From: an uncultured delta proteobacterium
GTDB taxonomy: Bacteria > Desulfobacterota > Desulfobaccia > Desulfobaccales > 0-14-0-80-60-11
DNA length: 64,000 nucleotides
NCBI GenBank assembly: GCA_963812015.1
Contig: CAWETI010000002.1
Location: forward strand, 640,001-704,000
Direction: 5' to 3'
Shown here: one piece after another, positions 1 through 57,558 of the stretch
Position numbering within the stretch: position 1 is the first letter of the stretch
How the letters are laid out: each line of letters starts with the position of its first letter
Notes under the pieces: model-generated
Told to the model about the DNA's origin: nothing
What the model saw: the letters and a program-made list of their open reading frames with translations, nothing else
Databases searched by the model: none
Position numbers and translations under genes: made by a program

Positions 1-949
1 GCAAATGCCTGGCCACCGCCCCGGCAAAGAAGCGCTCTTCATCTGGGATCAACCGATCGAACACTGCCGTCTGGCAGTGCAGGTCGAAGCGGGGTGACCG
101 TTCAATCAGCAGTTCCCGGGCCACAGCCGTCACCAGAGGAGAATCCAGCCCGCCGCTGAGATATACCCCTACCCTGTCGGTGCGTAAGCGGTCCGCAACC
201 GCCTCCCGCAGCAACTCCTGGAACCGGTCCACATAGTCCCGCTGGCGCCGGTAGTGCACGGGGCCTTCCTGAGGCAGGCGCCAGTAGCGCTGCACCTTTA
301 CGGCGCCCCCTGCCTCCCAGGTCTGGGAGTGGGCCGCGGGCAGGCGCCGGATGTCGACAAAGCTCGTGGTAGCCGGGTCCTGGTTGAATTCAAAGAGGAG
401 GAAATCGGCGATGACCAGGTCATTGAGCCGGTCGGAAACGTCCGGGTGCTGCCGGATGCAGTTCAGGGTATTGCTGAAAACCAGGCTACGGCCCGTTTCG
501 GCATAATAGAAGGGCTTGACACCGAAATGATCCCGGGCGCAGAACAGCCGCCGGTGGCGTCCATCCCAGAGGGCGAAGGCAAAATCTCCGATCAGATGTT
601 GGAGACAGTCGTCCCCCCAGACCTGGTAGGCATGAAGGATCAATTCGACATCGGGGGAATTTTTGGGAACGGCGCAGCCCCGGGCGGCAAGCTGTTTGAC
701 GAGATCGGCGCGGCCGTCGATACGGGCGTCCGCGGTGATCCACACCTGGCCGTCCAGGGTCAAGGGCTGACAATCCGGCCGGGTGTCATCCACCGTGCGC
801 AGCAGGGCATGCCCGAGGCCTACTGTGCCCTGGCTCCAGGTCTCCTGGGCATCGGGGCCGCGGAAGGCCAGGAATTCCGTCAGGCGCCCCAGCAACTCCC
901 GATCCACCGGTTGCCCGTCCAGATTGATGAGGCCCACGATGCCGCTCAT
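1..949 (-). CDS. Asparagine synthetase-like lasso peptide cyclase (C protein), partial, runs off the left edge
   Basis: Manual minus-strand translation from ATG at 949 gives MSGIVGLINLDGQPVDRELLGRLTEFLAFRGPD..., and near 140-170 GVYLSGGLDS (PP-loop). Ser replaces the catalytic Cys2 of true AsnB. ATGA overlap with the upstream gene. Not in the ORF track. Confidence 0.88.
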   Translation of the reverse strand, partial: MSGIVGLINLDGQPVDRELLGRLTEFLAFRGPDAQETWSQGTVGLGHALLRTVDDTRPDCQPLTLDGQVWITADARIDGRADLVKQLAARGCAVPKNSPDVELILHAYQVWGDDCLQHLIGDFAFALWDGRHRRLFCARDHFGVKPFYYAETGRSLVFSNTLNCIRQHPDVSDRLNDLVIADFLLFEFNQDPATTSFVDIRRLPAAHSQTWEAGGAVKVQRYWRLPQEGPVHYRRQRDYVDRFQELLREAVADRLRTDRVGVYLSGGLDSPLVTAVARELLIERSPRFDLHCQTAVFDRLIPDEERFFAGAVARHL

Positions 950-2538
950 TTTGTGCCCTTTATCGCCCGGTATTTAGCTTTAAAAGCGAGACGTATGTGA
1001 TACCAGGCCCGCTGAACTGCGTTCCCGATATCCCGAGGGATCATCTTAATGGCGGCCCAGACTTCCTGTCTAACCTCGGCCCCTTGCCGCTTTTTCAAGA
1101 AGAGCCGGGCCAAGCGGCTGCGGACCACACAGCCGTCATCACCGGCAGCGATACCCATACGCAGCGATATTATAGCAGTATCAATCTGTCCTTGTGCAGC
1201 ATAAAGCCTACCTAAAATCGTATGTATCCGGAAATGATCGGGGTCCATGAGGAGGGCGCGGTCATTGTGGGAAAAGATGGGAGCCCCTATGGGCAGATAG
1301 CCCCGCAGGCTCAAGTGCAGCGATCTTTCGTACGCCTCAATAGCCTCAGGACCTCGACCTCGCTTCGACAGAACCTTTCCCAAGGTGCGCCAGGCATCCA
1401 CCAGATGGTCGTCAAGTTCCAAGGACTTGCGCAGCCAGGCCTCTGCCTCCTGCCACCGCGTGAAACGGGTCGCCAGTTGTCCCAGGCCGAAATGGGCGTA
1501 AGCGTCTTCCGGATTCAAAGTTAGGGTGCGCCGGTGCTCCTGCTCGGCCTCTGGGTAGCGCCGGTCCCAGTAATACCAGAACCCGCCGCTGCCATAAGCG
1601 GTGCCGTAAGCAGGGTCAAGTTCCCGAGCCCGCCGGTGGCACTCCCGGGCGTCGGTTGGTCTCCCCATATCGGCGTAAGCGCCTGCCAGGAGGAATTCGA
1701 GGGCAGGATTGTCCGGGAGAAACTCTCTGGCCTGAAGATAGGTTTGCACAGCCTGGGGCAGGTTCCCCCCAGTCTTGGCTCGGGCTCCCTCCCGCAGCAG
1801 GGTCATCCCTCGCAGAAATGGCTCGTGATCTCGAACCCCATCCAGGCGCCGGGCCAATTCATCGCCCAGATATTTCCACTGCAATGGGGTAAAGCCTCCT
1901 TCCACCGAATAGGCGATGGTCACCAGTTCGGCCTGGATGCCCATGTCCTTGAGGCCGGTCGCCAAAGCGTCGGGCCAGCACCAGGGAAGTCCCCGATGTT
2001 GGTCGCTGGAGTGGCAGGCCTTGGGAATCACCATATAATCCACGTCGATATCTAATAGGACCTTTTCGGTTATCAGGGGCAGGCCCTGCAACGTGCACAC
2101 CCGCAAGGGCCTCCCCAAAATTGCGCCGGCAATCAGATCTCTTTCCGCCTTGAGGGGATGCGGCTTGCCGGGATATTTTGCCAAAATTTTTTGCAAACTC
2201 CGTACCAAAGGCTTGCGGCTTCCGGCATCCCCCAAGGTCCGATCAGGGACCACCCAAAAGATTTCTCTGACCATGCCTTCCTTCAAGGCCTGGCAGATAA
2301 AGTTGCCAATATTGAGGGAAGACCGGTCTGCGCACCAGCTCAGGTCATCATGGGCGTCCACGTGGACCAGAATTTTCTCACGGACTCCGGCATCCTTCCA
2401 AACAAAATAGGCCTGGTCATGGTTTTCCATGAGATGGACACGCTTCAGAAAGGGTTCTACCTGGCTTAAGGCTGACTTTTGCATATCTTTACTGGTCTGC
2501 TGCCCCGATAATTGTGGCTGCATAATGACCGGCCCCAA
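946..2538 (-). CDS. UPF0489/arginase-deacetylase-fold (peptide arginase-like) protein with C-terminal TPR repeats
   Basis: HVDAHDD, LLDIDVDY and YSVEGGFTP motifs, then multiple TPR-like helical repeats. Start uncertain (2538, 2523 or 2484). Confidence 0.7.
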   Translation of the reverse strand: MGPVIMQPQLSGQQTSKDMQKSALSQVEPFLKRVHLMENHDQAYFVWKDAGVREKILVHVDAHDDLSWCADRSSLNIGNFICQALKEGMVREIFWVVPDRTLGDAGSRKPLVRSLQKILAKYPGKPHPLKAERDLIAGAILGRPLRVCTLQGLPLITEKVLLDIDVDYMVIPKACHSSDQHRGLPWCWPDALATGLKDMGIQAELVTIAYSVEGGFTPLQWKYLGDELARRLDGVRDHEPFLRGMTLLREGARAKTGGNLPQAVQTYLQAREFLPDNPALEFLLAGAYADMGRPTDARECHRRARELDPAYGTAYGSGGFWYYWDRRYPEAEQEHRRTLTLNPEDAYAHFGLGQLATRFTRWQEAEAWLRKSLELDDHLVDAWRTLGKVLSKRGRGPEAIEAYERSLHLSLRGYLPIGAPIFSHNDRALLMDPDHFRIHTILGRLYAAQGQIDTAIISLRMGIAAGDDGCVVRSRLARLFLKKRQGAEVRQEVWAAIKMIPRDIGNAVQRAWYHIRLAFKAKYRAIKGTK

Positions 2539-2584
2539 GTAATTGGCAAAGCTCCGGCGACTGTCAAGCCTCCAAAGGGCGAAC

Positions 2585-3061
2585 TTAAGGAGCCGCCGGG
2601 GGGATTATTTCCCGAGGGAAAGGGGGAAACCGCCCGGCCACGTTCGCACCGTCATTCAGCGGCTGGCCCTGGAACTCCACCCAGGCGTGGGCTTCCAGGC
2701 GGCTCGGCTCAGGCTTAACGCCGATGCGCAGCTCTCCGGCAAGCCCCTGGCGGCGCAACAGCCACCAGAGGACCAGGGATCGGGGGAGACAGGTGGGCCG
2801 AAAGAGGCCGTAACGGGCTGCAACCTGCACCAGGCGGGCGGTGGCCCGAGCCTGATCCAAGTCCGACTTTAGGGCAGACAGGTGCGGGGCCAGGGCCTCT
2901 CCCTGGTTCAACCTGGCCTGGAGCCGGCAGAGTCCCCAGCAGCGCAGTCCTAAGGCCACCAGGGGGAGCGCCAGGGAAGCCTGGACCAACAACCACCGCT
3001 CGGCCCCGGAAAGCTGCCATGCTTTCTTTAGATTAATTTTCGTGGAGTTCCAGTAATCCAC
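2585..3061 (-). CDS. Lasso peptide biosynthesis B2 protein (transglutaminase-like leader peptidase)
   Basis: CLPRSLVL...LRIGV...AHAWVE Cys/His motifs. Start uncertain (GTG 3061; ACG at 3043). Confidence 0.9.
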   Translation of the reverse strand: MDYWNSTKINLKKAWQLSGAERWLLVQASLALPLVALGLRCWGLCRLQARLNQGEALAPHLSALKSDLDQARATARLVQVAARYGLFRPTCLPRSLVLWWLLRRQGLAGELRIGVKPEPSRLEAHAWVEFQGQPLNDGANVAGRFPPFPREIIPPAAP

Positions 3062-3317
3062 GCTGCACCATCTTGGACACAAAATCATCTAGGTCTTGCC
3101 GCAGCAAAGGTGGGTCAACCTCATAGTCTGCCAGCAACTTCTGGTAGGCCGCCTCGATATTCTCGCTGGAGGTCAGAGCCTGGCACATGCGCGTCCCCAC
3201 GCCATCCAGACCGTGGTAGCATTCGGTGTCGAGATTGAGGAGCACAGATTCGTTTTCGAAGGTGCGCATTAAAACATTCACGGGGAAGGTAACCCGCATG
3301 CTCATGGAAAAAGGCAT
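3033..3317 (-). CDS. PqqD family RiPP recognition element (lasso B1)
   Basis: 94 aa, ESVLLNLDTECYHGLDGVGTRM...LLADYEVD...DLDDFVSKMVQRGLL, adjacent to B2. Confidence 0.9.
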   Translation of the reverse strand: MPFSMSMRVTFPVNVLMRTFENESVLLNLDTECYHGLDGVGTRMCQALTSSENIEAAYQKLLADYEVDPPLLRQDLDDFVSKMVQRGLLELHEN

Positions 3318-3534
3318 GGTGTCAATTCCTTATATATATTATGCTTGATGTATAATTGCTGTTTTTTAAATTTTTCCCCTTTTCTCCAAAAAGGCTATCT
3401 AAAATATTGCCTTAGGTCAGGGCGTTAATTATATTATCTAAGTATTTAATATTGCTTGATTTTAATAATAAATTTGGGATATTCAAACAAGTTTTTTATA
3501 ATGCTTTATACTACAGATTTAAGGCCACCTCAAC

Positions 3535-4683
3535 ATGTTTCTACCCATGGGCAGTCTCCCAGAGTCTTGGCTGGCGGCATTTACTCTTCTCCGCCCCTTG
3601 TTGCCAGTGATAGAGGAGAGGGATCCTCCGGGGGGGGTAACCACCCTGCGGACTCTGGATGCCACGTGGGTAGAACATTGGCGTGCCTTGCAACTCACCC
3701 CGTTGCTGTACCGCGAACTGGCGCGCCGAGGCTGGGATGCGCAGATTGCGCCCCCATGGTGGTCCACCCTCCGGGATGGCTACGTCCTGGCCTTACAGTC
3801 TGCCTTCCAAGAAGAAGAAGAGATCAAGGAACTCCTGCGAGCCCTAACCAAAGCGGGGGTCACCCCGATTCTTCTTAAAGGCGCCGATCTGCGCCTGCGA
3901 GTTTACGGCGACCCTGCTGTTCGGCCCATGGCTGACCTGGATATCCTGGTGTCGCCGAGCCAAGTCGACCGGGCTCGGGGGGTGCTCGAATCCATGGAGT
4001 TCAGGCTGCAGGCCCAGTGCTTTGATCCACGTCCCGGCTGGCGGGCTCGCTTTCGCAACGAACTTCACTTCGCTCCCCCCCCGGGTTGGCCTCTCCTGAT
4101 CGACCTGCACTGGCAATTATATTATATCTTCCGCTTTTATCACTTGCCTTATACCCGCTTGCAGGAAAAAGCCATCACTTCTGAGTACCAGGGATACCTC
4201 GTAAAGCTACTTTGCCCAGAACACCTAGTGATCCACCTTGCCCTCCACACCTACGCCGAACCCGACAGCGTCCTAAAAATCATTGATCTAGAAGGGGCAC
4301 TTTCCCTTCCCCTAGACTGGCCCTTTTTCCTGGAAGAAGTTGCTCGTTTCAACTGCCAGAGGCCTCTGTATATTATCCTCCTGGGGATATCCCGGCTTTT
4401 TCCCCAAAAAGTGCCTCCCTTTATCCTTGATCACCTGGGCCAATCCCGGCCCGCGTGGGTTGAAAAACTGGTCCTCCGAGAGTCCCTGGGCTACCTGACT
4501 GTTCATGCCGCCACCCTGTACCACCATAGGCGACTCTCAGACTGGTTTTTTTACCTGAAGGCTTTAACCTGGCCGCAAGAAGAATACCTGACAGCAATGT
4601 ATGGAATGCCTGACCGCATTCGTTTTTTTCAACAAATCCTGGCCCACCTGTTTTCCTACGCCAAAAACTGGGGGCCGCATTAA
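3535..4683 (+). CDS. Nucleotidyltransferase family protein (NTP_transf_5-like, lasso-cluster associated)
   Basis: PILLKGADL...RPMADLDILV and IDLHW motifs. Divergent from B1. Confidence 0.85.
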   Translation: MFLPMGSLPESWLAAFTLLRPLLPVIEERDPPGGVTTLRTLDATWVEHWRALQLTPLLYRELARRGWDAQIAPPWWSTLRDGYVLALQSAFQEEEEIKELLRALTKAGVTPILLKGADLRLRVYGDPAVRPMADLDILVSPSQVDRARGVLESMEFRLQAQCFDPRPGWRARFRNELHFAPPPGWPLLIDLHWQLYYIFRFYHLPYTRLQEKAITSEYQGYLVKLLCPEHLVIHLALHTYAEPDSVLKIIDLEGALSLPLDWPFFLEEVARFNCQRPLYIILLGISRLFPQKVPPFILDHLGQSRPAWVEKLVLRESLGYLTVHAATLYHHRRLSDWFFYLKALTWPQEEYLTAMYGMPDRIRFFQQILAHLFSYAKNWGPH

Positions 4684-5042
4684 ATTCTTTCTTCTTAATT
4701 TCTCGTACGCTCAGATAGTAATGGCCATTACAGTCTGGTGTGGATTTTTTTAGTGTGGCAAGGGCTTGGGGCAGGTCATTTGGACTACTTAGCGAGGCCG
4801 TCGAAAAACCTCTTTGAATCTATTGTGATTTACTTTTGAGAGAGTTTTTAGGCGAAAAATCCCTACGACCTTTCTGATCTCTATCTTCTCTTATCATCGG
4901 TGGCTTCCCTGAGTCTCACCTGCCCCCAGCCTACACATATGCAAGCCCATAGTTCAGGACCTTTGCTATATTATGAACCAGGCAGTACAAGCAGCCAGTG
5001 GATATTCACCTTGATCTTACCTCTTAACGTGAACCGGTCTAA

Positions 5043-5640
5043 CAGGATGTTGAAAAACTCGTTTGTTAAGAACCCCAAAGAATCGCTGTCTATAAAACCA
5101 TAAAGCTTTTATAGTTAATGATAACAAAAGGTTATCTGGAGGCAGCGATTATGCGCGGTGACGATATGCAGCAGCAAGCCATGTTCAGCTACCTTTCCCC
5201 TGAAGCTCGAGTGCCCCAGGATCATCCCCTCAGACCCATCCGGAACATGGTGAATCAAGCTTTGGCTGAGCTGGCCGGGGAGTTCCAGGCCATGTATTCC
5301 CGGGAGGGTCGCCCTTCCATCGCCCCGGAGAAGCTGCTGCGCGCCTTATTGCTCCAGGTCCTTTACACCATTCGCAGCGAACGGCTCTTGATGGAGCAGT
5401 TGGATTAAAATCTCCTGTTTCGCTGGTTCGTTGGCCTGTCCATGGACGACAATGTCTGGGACCATTCCGTCTTCTCTAAGAATCGGGAGCGCTTTCTCCG
5501 TTCGGACCTGGCCGCGGCCTTTTTCGGACGCATCCACGAGCAGGCGGCCCAGGCCGGACTGTTGTCGGACGAGCATTTCACCGTGGACGGCACCCTCATT
5601 GAGGCCTGGGCTTCCCTGAAGAGTTTCCGGCCCAAAGACA
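5043..5640 (+). mobile_element. Truncated IS5/IS1182-like insertion sequence (left end plus transposase N-terminus)
   Basis: CAGGATGTTGAAAAA terminal IR-like sequence at 5043 preceded by CTAA. Transposase similarity ends near SFRPKD at about 5640. Confidence 0.7.
5151..5640 (+). pseudogene. IS5-family transposase pseudogene
   Basis: MRGDDMQQQAMFSYLSPEARVPQDHPLRPIR...EQLD*NLLFRWFVGL...HFTVDGTLIEAWAS. In-frame TAA at 5406-5408 and 3' truncation. Confidence 0.85.
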
Positions 5641-5841
5641 CTCTGATTTTGGGCATACCTCACCCGTCAAGAAGGTGCAGAACGAACGGGAGGGAGATAT
5701 TAACCGGGGCTGGCCCGCAGGCCCGGCCGAGGGCCGAAGCATCTCTATAAGAGTTAATCAGTTCCCATATTTCTGCCATTCTATCAATCCTTGGCACCTG
5801 ACCTGAGTCCCTGGCAGGGATATTATCAACTCCTTTCATTA

Positions 5842-7971
5842 TCAGTTAAATTTAGGATTTAATTTCTGATAACCTTTTTCCAATTCTTGATTCATGAGCT
5901 GGATTTGATTGGTTTTTTGATAACATCGGCAGAGAGAAATATTGATCTTCTCGTCTTCCGGGCTGATTTTTTCGGCTTTTTTCAGTTCAGGGATGGCCCG
6001 CAAATATTCATGGGTCTTTTCGAAGCTCATTCCTAATATCGCATGGACATTGATATCATCTTCCTGACAATTCAGTTCCAAGGACTTATAGACCGCCTTG
6101 ATGGCTTGCCGGTAGTGTTTCTTTTCGAATTGATACCTGGCCATGAAGAGATGAAAGCGGCCGTCATGGGGAACTTTCTTTAAGGCTTTCCGAATAATAG
6201 CCAGGGCCTGACGGCTCTTTTTCTTTTCTTCATAATAGGAAACCAATCCCCTCATTTCTTCTTGACCATCTTTATCTAATAGATAATTACCCAAAACTAA
6301 TATATCCATTTCCGTGCTTAAAAAAACCTCGATCGCGTCAGCAGGTGTTTCGACAATCGGCATCCCACGGATATTAAATGAAGTATTTAAAATGACAGGC
6401 ACACCGGTTATTTGATAGAATTCATTTATCAAATCATAATAAAGTTCATCATCAGCTCTGGTTACGGTCTGCACCCTGGCGGTGCCGTCTACATGAATAA
6501 CCGCAGGTATCTCTTTGCCTTTATCCTCTTTTGTGGTCGCCACCAGCAACATAAAAGGGCTGGGGCAAGAAAGATCAAAGAATTCGGTGGCACATTCCAA
6601 AAGGATGCTGGGGGCATAGGGGCGAAAACTCTCCCGGTGCTTCACCTTTTTGGTTACCGACTCTTTTATCCCGGTCTGCCTGGGGTCGGCCAGAATGCTT
6701 CGGTGACCTAATGCCCTGGGGCCGAATTCAGCACCTCCTTGAAACCAGCCAACGATCTTGCCGGCCGCAATATACTGAGCGGTTCTGCTGAGGAGTTCGT
6801 TTCTGGTCAAAGGGTTTTTTACTATCTTATGCTTGCGCAAAGCGGCCCGAATCTCTCCTTTCTTGTATTTTCTCCCAAGATAAACATTTTTCAGAGGAAA
6901 TCTACTCTTTCCATCGGCTAATTTATGCCAGCCGTATAAGGCGCAACCGATGGCTATCCCATCATCCGTTGCGGCCGGCTGAATAAAAATATTTTTAAAT
7001 GGAGTACTATCCAATATCTTCTTATTCGCAACCGAATTCAGGCCGGCACCTCCGGCTATACAAAGATTCTCTGATCCCGTCATTTCAAACAGCCTATTCG
7101 CCAGGCAAATCATGCCTTTTTCCAGTTCTTCCTGTGCTTTGTAGGCCAGATTTTTGTAAAATTGAGTAAAGTTATCGTTTTTCGGCTTTACGATTGGCAC
7201 CAAGTAGCCTTTGTTGGGCTTGGCAATTTTGAGGTCTAACGCCAGCTGGGCAAATCGGCTATTTTCTATATGGTGATCAGTAATTTCAATGATATCCGGC
7301 CAATCTTTCACAGGTTTGCCGTAGGCGGCCAGTCCCATAGTTTTGCCCGCCTCGGTAACAATAATGCCCGATGACGGATGGTATTTTTCCATTGAAAAAC
7401 CTAATACAATAGAGATGAAATTATATATATAAGCTAGCGAATAATAGGCTTTCATTTGAGGATTTTTGGCCGACCATAACTTCTGATAATTTTTTAGTAT
7501 CTGTTCTATGTTACTGCCTTTGGCGTAGAAACCGCTTTCCGCCTCTGTCCCATTCGATGTTTCACTACCGAATACGTCAGCAACTAGCACCGCACTTTCA
7601 CGAAAAGGAGAGCAAAAATAAGAACTATAGGCATGGGCCAGATGATGTGACGGGTGGGGCAGGCATTTAATTTTAGATTTATCTTTAATCGGTAAGAGAG
7701 ATTTAAGGCTCTCTAAATTGACAGGTTCAACGGCATTATCAGCTACGATTAAATCCACATCATCCAGACCGATATTTGCCGAGTTCAGGCAGTAGGTTAT
7801 GGAGCGCATGGGGGGTATTCTGCTATTCTGGTCTTTCTTGCGTACCTGAAAATATAAGGTTGAGTTCTTGACTCCATCCAGCCGCTCTTCAGCAATGGCA
7901 AATAAGATCCTGCCGTCCTTGAGCAGGCAGGCGCTCCGATCATGACTTAGATTTATTCCTAGGATATGCAT
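5842..7971 (-). CDS. Carbamoyltransferase (NodU/CmcH family) with C-terminal TPR repeats
   Basis: ILGINLSHDRSACL, IAEER, HHLAHAYS, GKTMGLAAYG, AGGAGLNSVAN, EFGPRALGHRSIL, HVDGTARVQTV, LNTSFN. Helical TPR-like tail. ATG at 7971. Confidence 0.92.
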   Translation of the reverse strand: MHILGINLSHDRSACLLKDGRILFAIAEERLDGVKNSTLYFQVRKKDQNSRIPPMRSITYCLNSANIGLDDVDLIVADNAVEPVNLESLKSLLPIKDKSKIKCLPHPSHHLAHAYSSYFCSPFRESAVLVADVFGSETSNGTEAESGFYAKGSNIEQILKNYQKLWSAKNPQMKAYYSLAYIYNFISIVLGFSMEKYHPSSGIIVTEAGKTMGLAAYGKPVKDWPDIIEITDHHIENSRFAQLALDLKIAKPNKGYLVPIVKPKNDNFTQFYKNLAYKAQEELEKGMICLANRLFEMTGSENLCIAGGAGLNSVANKKILDSTPFKNIFIQPAATDDGIAIGCALYGWHKLADGKSRFPLKNVYLGRKYKKGEIRAALRKHKIVKNPLTRNELLSRTAQYIAAGKIVGWFQGGAEFGPRALGHRSILADPRQTGIKESVTKKVKHRESFRPYAPSILLECATEFFDLSCPSPFMLLVATTKEDKGKEIPAVIHVDGTARVQTVTRADDELYYDLINEFYQITGVPVILNTSFNIRGMPIVETPADAIEVFLSTEMDILVLGNYLLDKDGQEEMRGLVSYYEEKKKSRQALAIIRKALKKVPHDGRFHLFMARYQFEKKHYRQAIKAVYKSLELNCQEDDINVHAILGMSFEKTHEYLRAIPELKKAEKISPEDEKINISLCRCYQKTNQIQLMNQELEKGYQKLNPKFN

Positions 7972-8113
7972 ACTTTTCCTTTTTCGATGCCTTAATCCGA
8001 GATTATGCCGCATACATAGCTGTTTCTGTCTCAACGAGGTTTTGGAGCCTCTTTGGCCGAGCAAAATCTCCCAAACGGTCCTCTTCTCGAGGCCAATTCT
8101 TCTCAGAGGTGGG

Positions 8114-8143
8114 AAAATAGCACAAATTTGGGCGGAAAGTCAA
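8114..8143 (-). promoter_or_regulatory. Putative outward-facing sigma70 promoter inside the IS1380 right end
   Basis: TTGACT-18 nt-TATTTT with extended TGn, pointing at the carbamoyltransferase start. Confidence 0.5.
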
Positions 8144-8204
8144 TTTTCCCCAGATTTCGGGCATACTAATCCCTCGGCGACCAGATGCTAACTGGCTGGG
8201 AAGC

Positions 8205-9522
8205 CTAAGGACCCCAGGCCAGCACTGCCCGACAATAGTGTGCCAGAGGAAAGGCGGAGGCCACATGGACATACCATCTCCGGGCATGGTAAGAAAGCCT
8301 GGCGCCCACTTTGATTAATCGCTTGATCAGCCACTCCATGGACCGTTTCACTTCTTCACCCCAAACATTAGGACTGCCGGATCATATGCAGAAGGTTGTA
8401 GACCAGAACCCCCATCTGTAGCCTGGCCTGGTTGGCCTCGAACCCTTGGCAGCTGGTTTTGTCCCGCCGAAGAATGTTCTTCCCTTCCTTGATACGGTTT
8501 TCTATCTCGGCCCGGCCATTATAGACCTTGATCACCTTGCCGGCAGGTAGCCTGGAGTTGTTGATCACAAAGCCGATCCTGGGGAAAAGCTCGCCCCGGT
8601 GCCACTCGATCTTGGCCACTACCCGGCGAGGCCGGCTCCAACTCTTGGCCTGGTAGTGGAGGTCAACGATTTTGACCTGAATGCCGCTCTGGGGCGGTCG
8701 CCCGACCGGACGACCAAGATGAGGCGCCACCAACCTATCCAGGTTCTTATTTGACGGCAACCGAATGAAATATGTCATACGGTGTTCTTCGCAATACTCG
8801 TAGGCCTCCGGGTTGGCAAAGGCAGCATCGCTACGCAGCCAAAAGAGCCGGAACCAGGGGGGGTAACGCTCCACCAGGGGAGTAATAAATGGCAGAGTGC
8901 CGTCGGCGGAATGGACGTTCCCCGATCTCAGCTTTGCCATCAGACAAACGCCCTCGCTGGCAAAGCAAAAAAGCGGATGGAAACAGTTCTTGCCAAAGTG
9001 GCCATTGTAGGCGACGCCCTCCTGATTGCCATGCACCGGGTCCTCGGTGGAATCCAGGTCGATGATCAACCGCTTTTTGTTCTTCCTCCTTAACAAGGTA
9101 TCAGTGGACCGGGGCAGGGCGGCTTCCAAGACCTGAAGCCCAGCCTCGTTACCCAGGATGTCATTCTCCAACCGGGAGAGCATGGACTGGCTGGCTCCAG
9201 TCTCATGGCCCTTATCAAGAGTAAGCCTGAGGGCTGGATCGATGCGGAGAAAATCTGCATCGTTACAATCTTCATAGCCCGCAGCTATTTGGTAGACTCT
9301 TTGACGCACCATCTAAACCAATGAGTGTTTCGTATGAGTAGGTGATCTCAAATCTTCCAGATAATCTTTCATGGGGTCAATGATCATGAAACGTTCATCT
9401 ACCTCACGCAGTAGGATGAACCCAGTGTGGGAGGATATGGTGGCGCCCTGGAAATCTATCATGATGGCTCGGTTAAAATCCGGCCGGATCACCTCATTCC
9501 GGCTTTCACCACTATCGAGCAT
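8205..9522 (-). pseudogene. IS1380-family transposase pseudogene
   Basis: IDLDSTEDPVHGNQEG, LRSDAAF, YNGRAEIENRIKEGK. In-frame TAG at 9313-9315 and a frameshift near 8370, after which VWGEEVKRSMEWLIKRLIKVGAR...RRWYVHVASAFPL continues to TAG at 8205. Confidence 0.88.
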
Positions 9523-9675
9523 CTTTGCGACCCCCGATTTGCTAATATTTGCTGCTTATATCATATAGTTAGGTTGATTTCTATCAGTTTTTGCCGAATA
9601 ATCCAGGTTAAAACTATCTAAATTTCAGAGGGAGAGACTTTGGGAATTCTTAGAAAAGTCATAGCGGATTTATTG

Positions 9676-44886: not shown

Positions 44887-45534
44887 ATGCCTCTCCAAAT
44901 AAATGAAATTTTCTATTCTATTCAAGGGGAATCTTCATATGGAGGGTATCCTTGTGTTTTCATAAGACTAACTGGCTGTAATCTGCGCTGCTCATATTGC
45001 GATACCCAGTATGCTTATTTTGAGGGAGAACAGTTAGAGATAGATGATATTTTGAAGCGAATTAAGCTTTATCAATGCAAACTGGTGGAAATAACGGGAG
45101 GAGAACCATTGTTGCAACAGAAAACCCCCCAGTTAATAACGCAATTACTGGAAAAAAGATATAAAGTTTTATTAGAAACTAACGGCAGCCAAGATATCAG
45201 GCAGGTTGACCCGCGCTGTGTCAGAATCATTGATATCAAGTGCCCCTCCAGCGGTGAAGCGGACCAGAATAAGTTAGACAACCTGAACCACTTAACCCAA
45301 GAAGATGAAATAAAGTTTGTTATTGGCAATCGCCAAGACTACGAATTTGCCAAAAATATCATTCCATTAACTGAGTTAGATAAAAAACCATTAAGGTTTA
45401 TCCATTTCTCGCCGGTTTTTGGTAGGCTGGAACCACGGACTTTAGCCCAATGGCTACTGGAAGATCATCTCCCGGTGAGACTCCATCTGCAACTGCACAA
45501 AATAATCTGGGCTCCAGAACAGCGAGGAGTATAG
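44887..45534 (+). CDS. queE: 7-carboxy-7-deazaguanine synthase (radical SAM)
   Basis: EIFYSIQGES, GCNLRCSYCDT, TGGEP, ETNGS, QLHK. Confidence 0.95.
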   Translation: MPLQINEIFYSIQGESSYGGYPCVFIRLTGCNLRCSYCDTQYAYFEGEQLEIDDILKRIKLYQCKLVEITGGEPLLQQKTPQLITQLLEKRYKVLLETNGSQDIRQVDPRCVRIIDIKCPSSGEADQNKLDNLNHLTQEDEIKFVIGNRQDYEFAKNIIPLTELDKKPLRFIHFSPVFGRLEPRTLAQWLLEDHLPVRLHLQLHKIIWAPEQRGV

Positions 45535-46233
45535 GTGATGGTGAGGGGAAAAGCCATCGTGCTTTCAAGTGGCGGACTTGATTCTACCACCACCATGGCT
45601 ATCGCTCAGGCGGAAGGATTTGAAATTTTTAGCCTAAGCTTTCGTTATGGTCAGCGTCATAGCCTGGAAATTCAGGCAGCGGAAAATGTGGCGAGGGTCT
45701 TCGGAGTTAAGGAACACTTGGTAGTTGACATCGATTTGACCAAAATTGGGGGGTCCGCCCTCACTGACAATCTAGAGGTACCCAAAGCCCGTTCTGAGCA
45801 CGAAATGCAGAAGGGAATCCCGATCACTTATGTGCCGGCCCGCAATACCATATTCCTATCCTTTGCCTTAGCATGGGCCGAGGTGTTGAACGTCGCCGAT
45901 ATCTTCATCGGGGTGAACGCCCTCGATTATAGCGGTTATCCGGACTGCCGCCCCGAGTTTATCCGAGCCTTCGAGAACTTAGCAAACCTAGCCACCAAAG
46001 CAGGAGTCGAAGGAACCACCCGGTTTCGGATTCATGCTCCTCTCATCAATATGACCAAAGCGGATATTATTCGCACGGGTAATAAACTCGGGGTGGATTT
46101 TAGCCTCACCCACAGTTGCTATGACCCCTCTCCGGATGGACGGGCCTGCGGAAATTGCGACAGTTGTCTGCTGAGGAAAAAAGGCTTTTGGGAAGCGGGA
46201 ATTCCCGATCCGACTCTCTATCTGATTTCGTAA
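45535..46233 (+). CDS. queC: 7-cyano-7-deazaguanine synthase
   Basis: SGGLDS, YGQRH, YVPARN, YPDCR, SCY...CGNCDSC. Confidence 0.97.
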
Positions 46234-46250
46234 GCACTAAGAGGTGTGTC

Positions 46251-47031
46251 ATGATAGATGTCCAAAACCTTCCTGGTTTGTACAATCTCAACATTGACAA
46301 AGTGGGCATCTCAGATGTGAGTTATCCCATCGAAGTTTTAGACAAGAACCAGGAAAAGCAAGCCGCTACCGCCACGATTAATATGTATGTGGATCTCCCC
46401 CACCATTTTAAGGGGACCCACATGAGACCGCTTTATTGAGGTACTTAATAAATACCGGGGTGAGATCACCGTGAGAAATATGGGCAATATCCTGAGGGAA
46501 ATCGCCCGGAGCCTGGAAGCCAGATCATCCCACATGGAATTGAGCTTTAAATATTTTATTGAGAAAGAAGCACCCGTTTCCAAAGCCCGGAGCCTCATGG
46601 GATATGATTGCCGCTTTATCGCCTCCTACACCCAGGACAAAGACGAGGATTTTATTCTGGAAGTTAAAGTGCCGGTGATGAATCTATGTCCCTGTTCCAA
46701 GGAGATCAGTGGCACCGCCGCCCATAACCAAAGAAGTGAGGTGACCGTCCAGGTGCGATTCAAAGACTTTGTCTGGATCGAGGATGTCATCGCCTTGGCA
46801 GAGCAATCTGCAAGTTCGGACCTTTATGCCCTTCTGAAAAGGCCTGATGAAAAATATGTTGCAGAACGGGCTTATGAGAATCCGAGATTTGTCGAAGACA
46901 TTGTCAGGATCATCGCCAATGGACTCTTGCAAGACGAAAAAATCACCTGGTTTGCGGTCAAGTCTATCAATTACGAAAGCATCCACAATCATAACGCATA
47001 TGCCTTTATCACCAGAGATAAGCGGCTATGA
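46251..47031 (+). pseudogene. folE2: GTP cyclohydrolase I type 2, frameshifted as given (about 259 aa if repaired)
   Basis: MIDVQ, KGTHM[SRF], LCPCSKEIS, AHNQRS, NPRFVED, ESIHNHNA. One extra base near 46427, possibly a sequencing error. Confidence 0.9.
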
Positions 47032-49330
47032 TCACTTTTGACCTGTTTCACGAAATTGCGATTAAAATTCGCGATGACAAGAAATTAGACGAAGCTCAGA
47101 AAGAAGCCGTTTCATTTCCCGCATGTGACCCTCTTTTCTTGGTTGCAGGTCCTGGTTCAGGGAAAACTACGGTCCTTACGTTGAGAACCCTTCGGTTTAT
47201 TTTTGTAGACGGCATCTATCCCCAGAGTATCGTGGCCACCACCTTCACCAAAAAAGCAGCAGCAGAACTACGCTCCCGCATTTTGAGTTGGGGGGAACTC
47301 ATCAAGGAAGAGGTTAAAAAACAAAAACTTACCCCAGAACAGCATACTTTTCTGGAAAGTATAGACATCAACCGAATCAATACCGGGACGTTGGACAGCC
47401 TATCTGAGACCATTATGCGGGAATACCGCATGGCAGGTGACCCTCCTCCGGTCGTCCTTGATCAGTTTCTTGCAGATGTGCGTTTAGCGCAGAAGGGCTT
47501 ATTTGAAGGGGGGCGGTTCCAAAATAAAGAATTGGAGGCTTATCTCAAACAGATACGAGGATCTTATCAGGCTCGCAGCCTATCCACTAAAAAGAATTTC
47601 CTTCGGGGCCTGCACGACCGATTTGCCCAGAATCAGGTGGATATGGAGGCCTTCGCCAGGGAGGATCCCGGGCGGCAACAGGCCAAAGAGGCCATAAGCG
47701 GCTATCGGGACTCCCTCAGAGATGATGAAGCTCTGGACTTCGCTCTCCTGGAAGAAGAGTTTCGCTCTCGTTTGCTCGATAATAGGCTGGCGGCTTTTTT
47801 AGAGACGATCAAGGTGCTCTTGGTGGATGAATACCAGGATACCAACTATCTCCAAGAGCAGATCTATTTCACCATTGCCCAGTCTATTCAGGGGGCCATT
47901 ACGGTGGTGGGGGATGATGACCAATCGCTTTACCGCTTTCGGGGTGCCACCGTGGACCTCTTTCGGGAACTTCCTGATCGATTGAAGGGGGTACTAGGGG
48001 GTAAAACTGCGAAGACGATTCACCTACGCACCAATTACCGTTCTAGTCAGCAGATCGTCACGTTCTTTTCTCATTTTATCAAATTAGATCCCGCATATCT
48101 TCCCCGCGAGTCTTAAATAAACCCGAGGTTTTGCCCCACGCCGGCGCTGAGGTGGGTCTCCCCGTGTTGGGTATGTTCCGAGATAACCGGGAAGCCCTGG
48201 CCCAGGATTTGGCTGAATTAATTCATGCCATTTTTAGGGGACCCGGGTTTGAAATAATTTTACAGAATAAGAAAATAACCATTCAGAAAGATCCCGAAGG
48301 CGGGGATGTTGGCGATTGCGCACTCTTAATGAGCAGTCCGGCCGAATATGCTAGTGGCGGTGCGGAACGACTACCCAGGTTATTGCAGGACGGGTTGAAT
48401 CAATATGAAGATTTCATCCAGTTATTCAACCCCCGAGGAGAATTTTATGCCGACATCGATCAAGTAATGACTCTCTGCGGCCTACTCTTGGAGGCCATCG
48501 ACCCGCACAAGAAAGTGGAAGAGGCCGTGGGCAACTTTCCCGAGGAAGCGGTCCACCAAATGCAATGCTGGCGGGACCATGCCCGCAGGTTCATCACGAC
48601 TAATCCGGTCCCAAACCGACCGCATCCCCTTAAAGATTTCATTGACGCATGGGCCGTCCGGCGCTCCCAAGAACCGGGCCGGAAATGGCTCCAGGAAGCC
48701 CTTATCCTGGACCTTTGCTACAAACTAGTCACCTGGCTTCCGTTTTTCCAAGACGATCCCGAAGGGCAGGTGTACTTGGAGGTCATCTGCCGGGCCATCG
48801 CTCAAAATGCCGCCTACTCTCGGTACGAATCAAAGCTTTTGAGCAATAAAGAATTCGAAAGCATCAAAGAAGCCTACTGGAACATTTTTATCCCCTTAGC
48901 CACCGGCGTGATCGAACTTAATGAAGAACTCATCGAAACCTTCCCCCGAAATCGCCTATCCATTTTATCGATTCATCAGGCCAAGGGCCTGGAATTCCCC
49001 ATGGTGATCGTAGATGTATCCTCGGATTTCAAAAGTAATCATTATTCTCAAAGATTTAAGAGATTTCCTGATCCCAAAAGGGTTGGCGAAACTTACAGCA
49101 TGGAAGATGAGGTACGCCGTTTTTCCCCTTTACAAAATTTCCCCATCGGCTCCAAACTTGACCGTGCCTTCGATGACTTAGTGAGACAATATTTCGTCGC
49201 CTATAGTCGGGCTCAAATAGTATTACTGCTGGTAGGCTTGCGGAACCACCACATCCCGAATGTGGCTTTGGGTTGGCGCCGGGACGAAAGTTGGGCATGG
49301 CAGAATAAATTACCTTGGTTAACTATTTGA
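47028..49330 (+). pseudogene. UvrD/Rep-family SF1 helicase, frameshifted as given (about 767 aa if repaired)
   Basis: AGPGSGKT, TFTKKAA, VDEYQD, VGDDDQSLYRFRGA, TNYRS, then SIHQAKGLEF and FVAYSRA. One base missing near 48102-48107. Confidence 0.88.
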
Positions 49331-49337
49331 GGTTCCT

Positions 49338-50456
49338 ATGAAACTCGAGATACGTCCCTCTCACTATCTCATTCCGCAGTATAGTCTAACGGGAGACCTC
49401 CTGTCTTATCTGCGTTGTGGGTTGCAGTATCGCTATCTCAATGGCAGCGCCCTGCCGCCTTCCCGTCCGGTGCAGCAATGGTTTGGAGAATTCATCCACG
49501 GGGTTATGGAGGAGGCCTTTAAGACTTTTCGGGAACGAAATGCCCTACCACCTTGGCCCAACGAGGATATTCAGGCCATTTGCCAGAGGATTGAAAAACG
49601 CCTGGGGGTAAGGGGAAAATCCCCTCGGAACCGTACCCTTCGGGAGATTGCATATAGCCGGGCGCATTTGGCTATCAATGAACTTGGCCCTCACCTCTTC
49701 CCCCTAATCGCCGTTGCAGAGGTTAGGCTGAGTGCCACACGGGAAATGCCCCAGGAGCAAGGTATCCAGTTTCGGTCAAAGCATTTTGAGATACGGGGAG
49801 TGATCGACGTCCTTACCAGGGTTTCACTCAGCCAGTTTCAGGGTGACAACCTGCTATTGCAAATGCTCTGGGAGGTACTCGGTCCTGAGATCCCCCGTGA
49901 TGATTTTGAGGTCATCGTGGATTACAAGGGGATGCGTCGTCCATCCGTTATGGATGACACTTGGGCTCAACTGGATTGGCAGATTAATACATACGCCTGG
50001 CTACGGATGATGCAACCGGAAAGCCAAACAGTAATTGCGGGAGTGCTCATCTTTATCAATGAACTCCAACCCTCCAAGGAAGACCTCATAGAACTCCAGC
50101 AAGAGATCAAAATGGGCAGGACGGATGTCATCCCGGCCAAGGATGTAACCGAATTTCAAACCATTATGACATGGGATAAAAAAGCTGAGGTTCCCAGCCT
50201 GCCGCTGGATTTTCGGTTTCGTCGGGCCATCCGCATCGTCAAAATAAGCCCGAAGACTACGACGAATTCATTAAATAAATTTCACGAAGTCGTGAAGAAC
50301 ATTGAACATTGTGTCCTAAAAGAAAAAAATTGTGGTTCCATCCTCACTGTTTGGCCTCAGAAACCAGAGGAAAAGACCTGTACCGCCTGTGATTTTGAGA
50401 CCTTTTGTCCAAGTCTCAAAAAGTCTGGCGAACCTCGGGCACCAAAAGCCCCCTGA
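49338..50456 (+). CDS. PD-(D/E)xK nuclease, Cas4/AddB-like with four Cys
   Basis: YLRCGLQY, GEFIH, GVIDV, IVDYKG, QINTY, CTACDFETFC. Confidence 0.88.
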   Translation: MKLEIRPSHYLIPQYSLTGDLLSYLRCGLQYRYLNGSALPPSRPVQQWFGEFIHGVMEEAFKTFRERNALPPWPNEDIQAICQRIEKRLGVRGKSPRNRTLREIAYSRAHLAINELGPHLFPLIAVAEVRLSATREMPQEQGIQFRSKHFEIRGVIDVLTRVSLSQFQGDNLLLQMLWEVLGPEIPRDDFEVIVDYKGMRRPSVMDDTWAQLDWQINTYAWLRMMQPESQTVIAGVLIFINELQPSKEDLIELQQEIKMGRTDVIPAKDVTEFQTIMTWDKKAEVPSLPLDFRFRRAIRIVKISPKTTTNSLNKFHEVVKNIEHCVLKEKNCGSILTVWPQKPEEKTCTACDFETFCPSLKKSGEPRAPKAP

Positions 50457-50588
50457 CCATTACACCAGGCCACCAAAATCCCTCCTTGGAAATATCCCTC
50501 GATTTACAAGAAATTACTTGAAATAAATATTCTTATTGTGGTAATTTCCGGATATCGCTATCTTCATTAACTACCTTAATAAATTTCT

Positions 50589-51557
50589 ATGATTAACGTA
50601 ATTAATCTCTTCGTGACCTGTACCCAGAGGAAGAGTCGGGAAATTTCCTCTGAATTGCGGTTCAGGTTCCTTCCTGCCTATGAGACGTTGGAAGATCTCA
50701 GCGTGGCCTGGATCGATCGCTTGCAGGAACGGAAGGGGGAATTGGTCCACGCAAGTGAACTCTATGCCGGTGACCACTGGCAGGTAGTCCGATCCATAAA
50801 AAACGCGACAAACAATTCCCCTCTTGATTTGAGGATCTGGGTTATCTCGGCAGGCTATGGGCTCATATCTTACGATGCCCCATTGCAGCCTTATGCCGCC
50901 ACGTTTTCCGTTAGGAACCCGGATTCCATCCTCTCTCACTGCCCTTTAACAAAAGCAAAACAGATGCGGGCAGAGTGGTGGCGTCTGCTGGCAGAATGGA
51001 CCGGACCAGAACCACACAAACCTCGTTCTTTCGTTCAGGTGATCGGACAGGATCCGGAAGCTTTCCTCTTAATTGTTGCCTCGAACACCTATCTCGAAGC
51101 CATTGCACCGGATTTGACACAGGTGGTTCAGCGCCACCCGGCCCACAAAATCGGCATTATCTCAGCCGGAGTTCCTCAAAAGGGATGGTTAAGACCATAT
51201 CTTCTCCCCTGTGATTTGCGATTGAGATCGGTTCTAGGCGGCAGTTGTCATTCTCTCAATGTACGCATGGCCAGATGGGTATTACAGGAATGCGGTGGCC
51301 AACCATTGAATTTTGCAAAAATGAGGGAATGGCTACCAAGGTTTTTGGAAGGTGAAAAAAAACCTGAACTACCACAAAGAAAACCAATGAACGATAGCAG
51401 CGTAATAGATTTTATTTATAAAAAGATTAAACGTAATCCTGCAATAAAACCAACGCCTTTGCTTACGGAATTCCGTAAATCAGGATATGCCTGTGAACAA
51501 CATAGATTTTTATCATTATTTATGACCGCTCGAGAGGAGTTCATTAATAATGGTTAA
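50589..51557 (+). CDS. DpdC-like (YaaA/DUF328-related) protein
   Basis: CTQRK, ASELYAG and VISAGYGLI...PY YaaA-like motifs. Directly upstream of dpdB-dpdA. Confidence 0.6.
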   Translation: MINVINLFVTCTQRKSREISSELRFRFLPAYETLEDLSVAWIDRLQERKGELVHASELYAGDHWQVVRSIKNATNNSPLDLRIWVISAGYGLISYDAPLQPYAATFSVRNPDSILSHCPLTKAKQMRAEWWRLLAEWTGPEPHKPRSFVQVIGQDPEAFLLIVASNTYLEAIAPDLTQVVQRHPAHKIGIISAGVPQKGWLRPYLLPCDLRLRSVLGGSCHSLNVRMARWVLQECGGQPLNFAKMREWLPRFLEGEKKPELPQRKPMNDSSVIDFIYKKIKRNPAIKPTPLLTEFRKSGYACEQHRFLSLFMTAREEFINNG

Positions 51558-52686
51558 GAGAAAAGTCATTGTAAGGCGTGCTCTTAAAATTGAGCAAAAC
51601 AGTTCCCATTCTCTCTATACATTCAGTTTAAGAGGGTACGAACTGTTGACTATTGCCGATATTTCCAAAATCTCCCGGGACGAAGCTGGGAAATTAATAG
51701 GATATCAACGGCCAGAAGTGAAAAAACACATCCAAGATATAATAGACTATCTAAATAGTGAGGAAGTATTATTCCCCAATTCTATTATCTTATCTCTCTC
51801 CTCGCTGGTAACTTTTCGTTCTAGTCGAGGACCAAACGTCTATGATGGTATTGCCACCGGTGGAACCATTGAAATACCGGTGCCTGGCCCAAATGAGCCA
51901 AAACCAGGGTGGATCGTGGATGGGCAACAAAGAGCCTTGGCCTTATCAAAATCCAAAAAATCTGGTCTAGCCATTCCCATCAACGCCTTTATTGCTGATG
52001 AAGTTGAAATTCAGCGGGATCAGTTTTTGCGAATTAACAATACTAAACCTCTCCCTCGAGGTTTGATTACGGAACTATTGCCTGAGGTCTCCTTGCCACT
52101 TCCGGCAAACCTCACGGCACGCAAAATTCCCTCCTCACTTTGTGATTTATTGAATCGAGACCCAGTTTCGCCATTTTATGGCCTGATTTATCGAGCTTCC
52201 TCAACCTCCCAGGAACGGGCTAAGGCCGTAGTGGCCGATACCTCAGTGGTCAAGATGTTACAGGAGAGTTTCTCTTCTGCTTCTGGGTGCCTGTTTCCTT
52301 TTCGCAATTTGGCCACCGGCGAAACCGATTTTCAGAGCGTCTGGCTATTAATAAATACCTTCTGGGCAGCCGTTCGGAATGTGTTTCCCAAAGCTTGGGG
52401 CAAACCACCAACGATGAGTCGGTTGATGCATGGTGTAGGCATCCGGGCGATGGGAAAGTTAATGGACAAAATGATGTCAGCCTTCAATCCCGCTCACAAT
52501 AACTCTCAAGAGGCAATTGAACGGCAACTGAGATTGATCAAAGATCAATGTCATTGGACCGAGGGAAGATGGGAGAACTTGGGCGGGGTTGAGTGGAACG
52601 AACTGCAGAATGTTCCCCGCCACATCCGTATCCTTTCCAATTATTTGATAAGGGCTCATTTGCAGGCAAGGACTATCGCACCTTGA
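51550..52686 (+). CDS. dpdB: DGQHR domain protein DpdB (paralogue 1)
   Basis: GYQRPEV, FPNSII, WIVDGQQR, QFLRINNTKPLP. Confidence 0.88.
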   Translation: MVKRKVIVRRALKIEQNSSHSLYTFSLRGYELLTIADISKISRDEAGKLIGYQRPEVKKHIQDIIDYLNSEEVLFPNSIILSLSSLVTFRSSRGPNVYDGIATGGTIEIPVPGPNEPKPGWIVDGQQRALALSKSKKSGLAIPINAFIADEVEIQRDQFLRINNTKPLPRGLITELLPEVSLPLPANLTARKIPSSLCDLLNRDPVSPFYGLIYRASSTSQERAKAVVADTSVVKMLQESFSSASGCLFPFRNLATGETDFQSVWLLINTFWAAVRNVFPKAWGKPPTMSRLMHGVGIRAMGKLMDKMMSAFNPAHNNSQEAIERQLRLIKDQCHWTEGRWENLGGVEWNELQNVPRHIRILSNYLIRAHLQARTIAP

Positions 52687-53945: not shown

Positions 53946-53962
53946 ACCGATAGAGGTTGCCC

Positions 53963-55096: not shown

Positions 55097-55239
55097 GTTT
55101 ACGGAGTAATAAAACAATCAATTTTCGGTTATATTCTTGATAAAATACTCTTCTAATGCCAGTTTGTGTCGATTATTAGGAAGTCCTATTCACCAACATA
55201 GCAAAATTATTTTCTTTGCTTCTGATTCAAGGGGGAAGT

Positions 55240-57001: not shown

Positions 57002-57558
57002 TAGATTTGATCCGCACTTAATTCTAAATTGTCCCAAATACGCTCGAACTCAAGATAGGCTTCATTGATTTTCCGATTGCCTTCAGGATCGAGCGAAGCA
57101 TTACAAGTGATCTTTTCGCGATTTACGTAAAGTCCACTGTAAGTGAAGTTCATAGATCCCTCAAAATAGAACAACTCTGACAATAATCCTTTCTGATGGT
57201 CCTTCTGGGCTTTTTCGAATTTTACTTGGACTCGTCTTTGTTTATCGAATTTCACTGCGAATGCTCTGGATTTCGTATCAGGCCAGGTGATGATGCGGAC
57301 CGGTAAGCGATTTGAAACCTCAATCAGAGTCTCACTAAAAAGGATATGCCGGTTTTCAGCAAAATTATTCTGGTATCTGAGCAGATCTTTAAACTCTCCA
57401 AATGCATTATCGAGCAACTTAAAATCGGAAAGCCAAGGTGAAATCAGGTACATTGGTCGCTTACAGGGAACCCCGAGCAATAAAGTGCTAAAGAAAGAAG
57501 CTAGCAAATCCCGGACTTTCTTCCCCCCATCTCTTGAATGAATATCACGACTAGACAT
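57001..57558 (-). CDS. dpdK: Phospholipase D-like protein DpdK
   Basis: YLISPWLSD, HQKGLL...GSMNFTYSG. Directly after dpdJ. Confidence 0.85.
   Translation of the reverse strand: MSSRDIHSRDGGKKVRDLLASFFSTLLLGVPCKRPMYLISPWLSDFKLLDNAFGEFKDLLRYQNNFAENRHILFSETLIEVSNRLPVRIITWPDTKSRAFAVKFDKQRRVQVKFEKAQKDHQKGLLSELFYFEGSMNFTYSGLYVNREKITCNASLDPEGNRKINEAYLEFERIWDNLELSADQI

Follow-up and report, generated by a model that had tools for sequence, protein, structure and literature searches.

A lasso peptide cluster with a likely peptide arginase and a neighbouring carbamoyltransferase, probably a passenger, in an uncultured Desulfobaccales bacterium

The window analysed here is a stretch of 64,000 nucleotides (positions 640001–704000 of contig C2, CAWETI010000002.1) from the 3.96-Mb genome, labelled G000, of an uncultured bacterium of the Desulfobaccales. 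Its left end carries part of a lasso peptide cluster and two enzymes with C-terminal tetratricopeptide repeats (TPRs), a putative peptide arginase and a NodU/CmcH-family carbamoyltransferase. The initial annotation had joined these two into a possible route from arginine through ornithine to citrulline on the peptide. We find that the arginase likely tailors the lasso peptide and that the carbamoyltransferase probably is a passenger beside it. The genes concerned are listed below, with IS for insertion sequence and RRE for the recognition element of RiPPs (peptides made by the ribosome and modified after translation).

2..949, minus strand: N-terminal half of the lasso cyclase (C), whose whole gene (610 aa) extends past the left end of the window; the 316-aa piece matches NF033535 best (323 bits, the cut-off of 525 being meant for the whole protein) and has GATase_7 and Asn_synthase domains
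946..2538, minus strand: putative peptide arginase (UPF0489/OspR-like) with C-terminal TPRs, probably starting from the ATG at 2484; its six Mn ligands align with those of OspR; kept in lasso clusters
2585..3088, minus strand: lasso leader peptidase B2, true start probably at ~3013; NF033537 81 bits (cut-off 33), PF13471
3033..3317, minus strand: lasso RRE protein B1 (PqqD); PF05402 48.8 bits (cut-off 23.4)
3535..4683, plus strand: NTP_transf_5 nucleotidyltransferase-like protein, pointing away from B1 and towards the carbamoyltransferase; PF14907 131 bits
5040..5639, plus strand: truncated transposase remnant with an internal stop (DUF772); PF05598, with 87% identity to another copy, on contig C3
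5842..7971, minus strand: NodU/CmcH-family carbamoyltransferase with C-terminal TPRs, intact and of low GC; PF02543, PF16861 and TPR, with a TobZ alignment
~7993..9611, minus strand: IS1380-type element with a fragmented transposase; PF13701 (DDE_Tnp_1_4) 291 bits, ends set by related copies elsewhere in the genome
11121..12938, minus strand: ABC exporter; ABC_tran and ABC_membrane

The cluster continues to the left of the window with, in order, a GT41 glycosyltransferase-TPR gene, the precursor, a kinase-like gene, a methyltransferase resembling the protein arginine methyltransferases (PRMTs), a NusG fragment and a Wza/Wzc polysaccharide locus. The kinase-like gene, which has no kinase match from Pfam, we take to be HPr-kinase-like. 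The precursor is a 48-aa open reading frame (ORF) at L001 15803–15949 with the features of a lasso precursor, namely a YxxPxL-type leader, Thr at −2 and an acidic residue at core positions 7–9, here Asp9. Its predicted 21-residue core also contains Arg4, Arg16, Lys18 and Thr residues. B1 (PF05402) and B2 (NF033537) score above their cut-offs and the cyclase domains are present, the whole cyclase being unscored against NF033535. The nucleotidyltransferase-like gene (PF14907) is a recurrent member, seen at many related loci. Lasso clusters of this kind often adjoin Wza/Wzc polysaccharide-export loci (L001 8920–12523; L037, L038, L070 and others).

The layout bears out what had been noted before. 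The carbamoyltransferase with its TPR tail does lie between the lasso genes and the exporter, with domains above their cut-offs at 5842–7971, and IS elements stand on both sides of it, the DUF772 remnant (5040–5639) and the IS1380-type element (~7993–9611). The two enzyme-TPR proteins then recognized, the arginase and the carbamoyltransferase, are real and the GT41 glycosyltransferase makes a third.

The N-terminal domain of the arginase protein matches OspR, PDB 8BRP (E 4.6e-8), and the TPRs follow after residue 258. Six Mn ligands, His40, Asp60, His62, Asp64 and the two Asp of LDIDVD, align with OspR His12, Asp39, His41, Asp43, Asp165 and Asp167, the OspR residues being taken from PMC10028609. 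All six are invariant across 66 aligned sequences, the query and 65 of the 120 homologues listed out of 627 found. The peptide-arginase motifs EEH(N/H)EAF, DXHXD and LDIDLDYFSC appear here as ENHDQAY, DAHDD and LDIDVDY. The gene sits between B2 and the lasso cyclase and overlaps the latter start-stop (946..2538 and 2..949).

A scan of GTDB genomes for the arginase gave 85 confirmed stretches, the best 80 of which make 78 loci with flanks of up to 10 kb, where lasso genes were detected with profiles built from the window's own genes. A cyclase-like gene lies in the flanks of 24 of the 27 best-ranked loci (31/78 overall), and two of the three top loci without it are short contigs that still hold B1 or B2, the kinase and the methyltransferase. 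Searching for the leader motif turned up precursors at 27 arginase loci, that of this genome among them (L053 and L055 share one core). Counted by eye, at least one core contains Arg at all 27, against 10 of 19 arginase-free control loci; the control was 20 cyclase loci chosen regardless of arginase, one of which carried it and was dropped. This contrast is support rather than proof, because the loci are related and the counts carry no significance test. In G021 a decayed arginase, a 156-aa remnant, lies next to an Arg-free core.

What lies between B2 and the cyclase differs among genomes: G000, G050 and G462 have the arginase there, G046 has a radical SAM gene (L228, 7400–8869) and G005 has nothing. 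Such a variable slot fits an optional tailoring enzyme. The sister cluster of G046 also has two GT41-TPR genes.

Several points weigh against this assignment. The arginase falls under the curated cut-offs, with 47 bits against 350 for NF052474 and no Pfam match (PF12640) on the domain, and for this reason we call it divergent; among the 120 homologues listed, two carry PF12640. About half of the 78 arginase loci are not lasso loci, and nine further lasso-type arginase loci yielded no precursor in the leader-motif search. The second cassette of L070, an arginase locus, has a core without Arg. Arg is frequent in this peptide group anyway, as the 10/19 controls indicate, and the loci are related.

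The low family scores also bear on whether the UPF0489-TPR protein is an arginase for the lasso peptide at all. It might instead serve another product, for instance the adjacent polysaccharide, as a deacylase or amidinohydrolase, the ureohydrolase and deacetylase folds being related and the cluster adjoining Wza/Wzc loci in many genomes. We consider this unlikely in view of the peptide-arginase-type motifs, the start-stop overlap with the cyclase, the place between B2 and C and the Arg at 27/27 loci. Moreover, a TPR-containing peptide arginase, PbsE, has already been published (PMC12257519).

The protein thus appears to be a divergent member of the peptide arginases and is predicted to work like one. 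The intact Mn ligands, the conserved place in lasso clusters and the Arg in the precursors beside it together make Arg-to-Ornithine (Orn) tailoring of the lasso peptide likely. Most likely, its binuclear Mn centre would hydrolyse Arg4 and/or Arg16 of the core to ornithine and urea, with a loss of 42 Da each. The genes, the motifs, the synteny and the Arg in the core are all present at this locus; the activity and the substrate are predicted from them, and the TPRs may serve as a precursor-binding module.

Three other arrangements of the arginase were observed. In an Acidobacteriota lasso cluster (L057, 9881–13870), one 1330-aa frame fuses arginase, TPRs and GT41, and the cluster has two kinases and two methyltransferases. 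In a Melainabacteria metagenome-assembled genome (MAG), arginase and cyclase are separated by five ORFs in tandem that bear PqqD (L040, 11449–16294), the one scanned being a 2OG-Fe(II) oxygenase-PqqD fusion. A second, more distant arginase-TPR group (L076 7943–15775, L088 and other Omnitrophota/Nitrospirota loci) may belong to a RiPP-like system without a lasso cyclase, and its neighbours are PqqD proteins, radical SAM enzymes (one of them of the B12 type), a nucleotidyltransferase and a kinase-like gene.

A partner for the arginase could be the PRMT-like methyltransferase (L001 13549–14736), a recurrent gene of these clusters, which accompanies the arginase more often than the carbamoyltransferase does and is the likelier partner of the two. 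After the Arg-to-Orn step it would N-methylate the freed amine, otherwise methylating Lys, much as in the enteropeptins, where N-methylation of Orn follows the arginase (PMC12703449), here on a lasso scaffold. The enzyme is a PRMT1 homologue (E 1e-27) in which Asp and Gln occupy the double-Glu loop and the THW motif is absent, and the second Glu of the loop is missing also in most of the cluster homologues aligned. Both motifs we take to be functional in PRMTs, so a guanidine substrate is doubtful.

The cores tell in favour of such a hand-off. Among the loci with the methyltransferase, counted by eye, Arg occurs in the cores of 12/12 with the arginase versus 3/14 without it. Eleven of the latter 14 have Lys in the core, and at four of the 12 loci with both enzymes no core has Lys. 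Where both enzymes are absent, Arg occurs at 10/12 cyclase-selected loci. These counts come from few and related loci, and three of the 14 have a distant or split methyltransferase or a short flank. Against the partnership, 15 of 27 arginase loci lack such a methyltransferase in the fetched flanks, the core of the methyltransferase locus L260 has neither Lys nor Arg, and the target could instead be His, Met or the C-terminus. On balance, that the methyltransferase is the arginase's real partner is possible and somewhat improbable.

The carbamoyltransferase itself looks intact and is predicted to depend on ATP and carbamoyl phosphate. Its ORF starts with an ATG at 7971 and encodes 709 aa; a longer TTG start at 8064, given by the ORF caller, falls inside the IS end. 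Carbam_trans_N scores 126 bits (cut-off 24), Carbam_trans_C 235 (cut-off 27) and TPR_19 36.6 (cut-off 25), the last in a C-terminal TPR extension of ~130 aa. It matches TobZ, GdmN and relatives at E ~1e-60 to 1e-64, and its solved relatives are O-carbamoyltransferases. It is not a NodU proper by score, with 175 bits for NF041651 against the equivalog cut-off of 1000. His10, His109, His113, Asp132, Asp336, Lys444, Asn529 and Ser531 match TobZ in the alignment and are presumably the metal-site His and Asp and the adenylation-site Lys, Asn and Ser.

The TPR tail is common to 22 protein clusters at 56–80% identity to the window enzyme, so the combination is a real subfamily rather than a local accident. 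Among the matches that a metagenome scan listed none exceeded 38%, a viral scan gave one match of 33%, and plasmids at best 43%. The best matches were 43% in 151 Elusimicrobiota-centred genomes and 36% in 251 genomes of the class of G229, and no usable match came from the Atlas. In G229 (L201, 6509–10390), one 1294-aa frame fuses a carbamoyltransferase to a methyltransferase domain.

The initial annotation had proposed that carbamoyltransferase-TPR homologues be sought together with UPF0489-TPR and B/C genes in other genomes. Followed from the arginase side, this association did not appear. A carbamoyltransferase lies at two of the 78 arginase loci, and these two enzymes are 33% and 36% identical to the window enzyme and have no TPR tail. 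One, at L102, has GT2 genes on one side and GT4/sugar-transferase genes on the other. It is the one of the two that was placed in a tree (described below), where it falls among enzymes of polysaccharide loci, joined to L238 and to L202, a paralogue from this same genome (SH-aLRT 100), outside the group of the window enzyme. Whole-genome searches with the N-terminal 300 residues, run on 50 of the arginase genomes and on 82 further ones from the order, found no orthologue; the 50 gave one weak 34% match. The 82 include G050 (93% complete), G028 (97%) and G462 (75%), which carry the same arginase-lasso cassette. In 400 genomes of the phylum there was one 36% match and no orthologue. MAG incompleteness weakens each single absence and not the overall pattern. 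Hence the conserved co-location with precursor and core enzymes that marks a RiPP-tailoring carbamoyltransferase is not seen, as assessed from the arginase side.

Composition and surroundings also set the carbamoyltransferase apart. Its GC is 0.43 and its GC3 0.46, with GC3 of 0.65–0.78 for B1, B2, arginase, cyclase, kinase and methyltransferase; GC3 is below 0.50 in 3.3% of 1323 long frames of the genome. The opposing nucleotidyltransferase gene and the transposase remnant separate it from B1, and the downstream end of the IS1380-type element lies 22 bp ahead of its start codon. In the relative G046 (L228), the exporter counterpart directly precedes B1, ~0.4 kb upstream, which suggests that the 7.8-kb exporter-B1 interval here is a later insertion zone. 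The IS and the carbamoyltransferase are not bounded by any clear target duplication or terminal inverted repeats, so one-ended mobilisation by the IS1380-type element stays a guess. A promoter/terminator scan gave nothing decisive.

Fragments from two peat sequencing runs were looked at apart from the evidence above and are not used as evidence. Short contigs match the carbamoyltransferase at ~90–99%, and B1, B2 and the nucleotidyltransferase have little or no cover. One 517-letter contig departs from the window sequence beyond 5722, and a joint that skips the arginase (948 to 2666) has only 30 letters on one side.

The locus thus probably holds two unrelated things side by side, a lasso cluster with an Arg-to-Orn arginase and a passenger carbamoyltransferase. 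The cluster would consist of B1, B2, cyclase, precursor, kinase, PRMT-like methyltransferase, nucleotidyltransferase, GT41 and ABC exporter, with the TPR-fused arginase in the variable B2-cyclase slot. The carbamoyltransferase-TPR, with its low GC3, its IS flanks and its absence from sister clusters, looks like a recently inserted gene. It is probably of foreign origin, having arrived late with the IS elements in the exporter-B1 gap, and would probably not act on the lasso peptide or have a role in the pathway. Its neighbourhood with the arginase is most likely due to chance. We rejected the shared TPR architecture as a sign of partnership, since the cluster has a third TPR enzyme in GT41 and PbsE has a TPR fusion too, the accessible part of PMC12257519 naming no carbamoyltransferase.

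Some observations run counter to a passenger. The carbamoyltransferase is intact, runs in the same direction as the cluster and, like the arginase and GT41, is fused to TPRs; GT41 recurs in these lasso clusters even though its GC3 is also lowish (0.53). The genomic context of the 22 TPR-bearing clusters lay outside the comparison, and they could sit in other RiPP loci. In a quick IQ-TREE tree of 61 rows (L061 and L245 left out; long branches among the distant rows), the window enzyme falls in a 16-row group (SH-aLRT 98) and does not group with the polysaccharide-type carbamoyltransferases. Its nearest relatives with visible context (38–49%) lie by NRPS-like (L117), phenazine-type (L197), radical SAM/P450/TldD (L198) and housekeeping (L200) genes, and by these neighbours the enzyme leans towards secondary metabolism rather than polysaccharide. 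In addition, linkage is not needed for function, since the peptidyl arginine deiminase (PAD) of the citrulassins is encoded far from its cluster (10.1101/2020.07.16.207027).

Of the Arg-to-Orn-to-citrulline route proposed initially, the arginase half stands on the Mn ligands, the lasso synteny and the Arg in cores, and the pairing with the carbamoyltransferase does not, no orthologue accompanying other arginase-lasso clusters. In full, the arginase would make peptidyl ornithine and the newly recruited carbamoyltransferase would N-carbamoylate it to citrulline (net +0.98 Da versus Arg), a scenario we regard as very improbable. The same small credence goes to its wider form, a PAD-independent, two-enzyme citrulline route on a lasso peptide that was caught during IS-mediated assembly. 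The two enzymes are both intact, co-oriented, TPR-fused and 3.3 kb apart, and pieces of the chemistry have precedents: the StdF NodU-like domain turns a RiPP Lys side chain into homocitrulline in vitro (PMC13174530), and peptidyl Orn is modified further in other RiPPs (PMC12703449). The crocagin carbamoyltransferase is an outlier among sister clusters (PMC10070186), so a one-off recruit can function, as the StdF and citrulassin cases also allow.

On the other side stand the missing co-occurrence at the 78 arginase loci, in the 50 genomes and in the 82 genomes of the order, together with the IS flanks, the low GC3, and the opposing gene and IS remnant between carbamoyltransferase and B1. The route is costly as well, consuming ATP and carbamoyl phosphate where a PAD makes peptidyl citrulline by a single hydrolysis. 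It is unlikely rather than refuted, since the co-occurrence was run from the arginase side alone and N-carbamoylation by StdF is published (PMC13174530).

The carbamoyltransferase might also act on the lasso product independently of the arginase, by O-carbamoylation of Thr or an attached sugar or by N-carbamoylation of Lys18 to homocitrulline. The core does hold Thr residues and Lys18, the solved relatives are O-carbamoyltransferases, and the cluster has kinase, nucleotidyltransferase and GT41, the kinase/nucleotidyltransferase pair giving glycosylated lasso peptides in pseudomycoidin (PMC9266682). The absence from sister clusters speaks against this too. Near two of the 19 arginase-free lasso loci there is a carbamoyltransferase; the first is of the polysaccharide type (34%) and lies beside Wzc, the second is fragmented. 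We give this possibility very little weight.

Farther along the window, 44887–62173 is a low-GC island. Judged by their translations, its genes include QueE-, QueC- and FolE2-like ones, a helicase, an ORF like tRNA-guanine transglycosylase, two DGQQR-motif proteins and a second helicase of 1540 aa, and together they would resemble a dpd system for 7-deazaguanine modification of DNA.

Should the arginase act as predicted, lasso peptides that contain ornithine are made by a widespread group of uncultured bacteria from soil and sediment, and a lasso-adapted arginase would be useful for peptide engineering. The hand-off from arginase to PRMT-like methyltransferase would be a possible new pairing. 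The citrulline route would be new chemistry if true, and the comparative evidence is against it. A literature search found no ornithine- or carbamoyl-bearing lasso peptide; most subscription papers lay outside it, and the survey PMID 32780902 may already list lasso-associated arginases. Two lasso reviews mention neither ornithine nor arginase.

Among known systems, the arginase resembles OspR (PDB 8BRP), FlmR/OhkR and PbsE (pfam12640) in the three metal-binding motifs, the six ligands and the RiPP cluster with Arg in the core. PbsE shares the enzyme-TPR architecture and has been shown to make Orn (PMC12257519), so the TPR fusion of a peptide arginase is not new. The present case differs in its lasso host pathway and in its low score against the family models; the OspR and FlmR/OhkR papers name no lasso substrate.

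The citrulassins are likewise lasso peptides with a modified Arg. There the change is a one-step deimination by a distally encoded PAD, whereas the arginase here points to ornithine. No PAD (PF03068) match was found in this genome and none in 14 control genomes either, which makes the control uninformative. Clusters of the kinase/nucleotidyltransferase lasso type reportedly include that of paeninodin. The present cluster is like that of pseudomycoidin (PsmK/PsmN) in having B1, B2, C, kinase and nucleotidyltransferase-like genes (PMC9266682), and differs in the added arginase-TPR, PRMT-like methyltransferase and GT41-TPR and in its occurrence in Desulfobacterota, Acidobacteriota and others, often beside Wza/Wzc.

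The carbamoyltransferase was set against StdF, a NodU-like carbamoyltransferase-peptidase fusion for Lys to homocitrulline, and crocagin CgnI by description rather than sequence. All have a NodU/CmcH enzyme beside RiPP genes, and StdF and CgnI show peptidyl N- or O-carbamoylation to be possible. StdF is a peptidase-fused core gene of its cluster, whereas the window enzyme carries a TPR tail, is flanked by IS and lacks a conserved neighbour link. With TobZ, GdmN and the novobiocin carbamoyltransferase it shares the two-domain fold family of Kae1-like and YrdC-like parts, and it differs from them by its ~130-aa C-terminal TPR extension.

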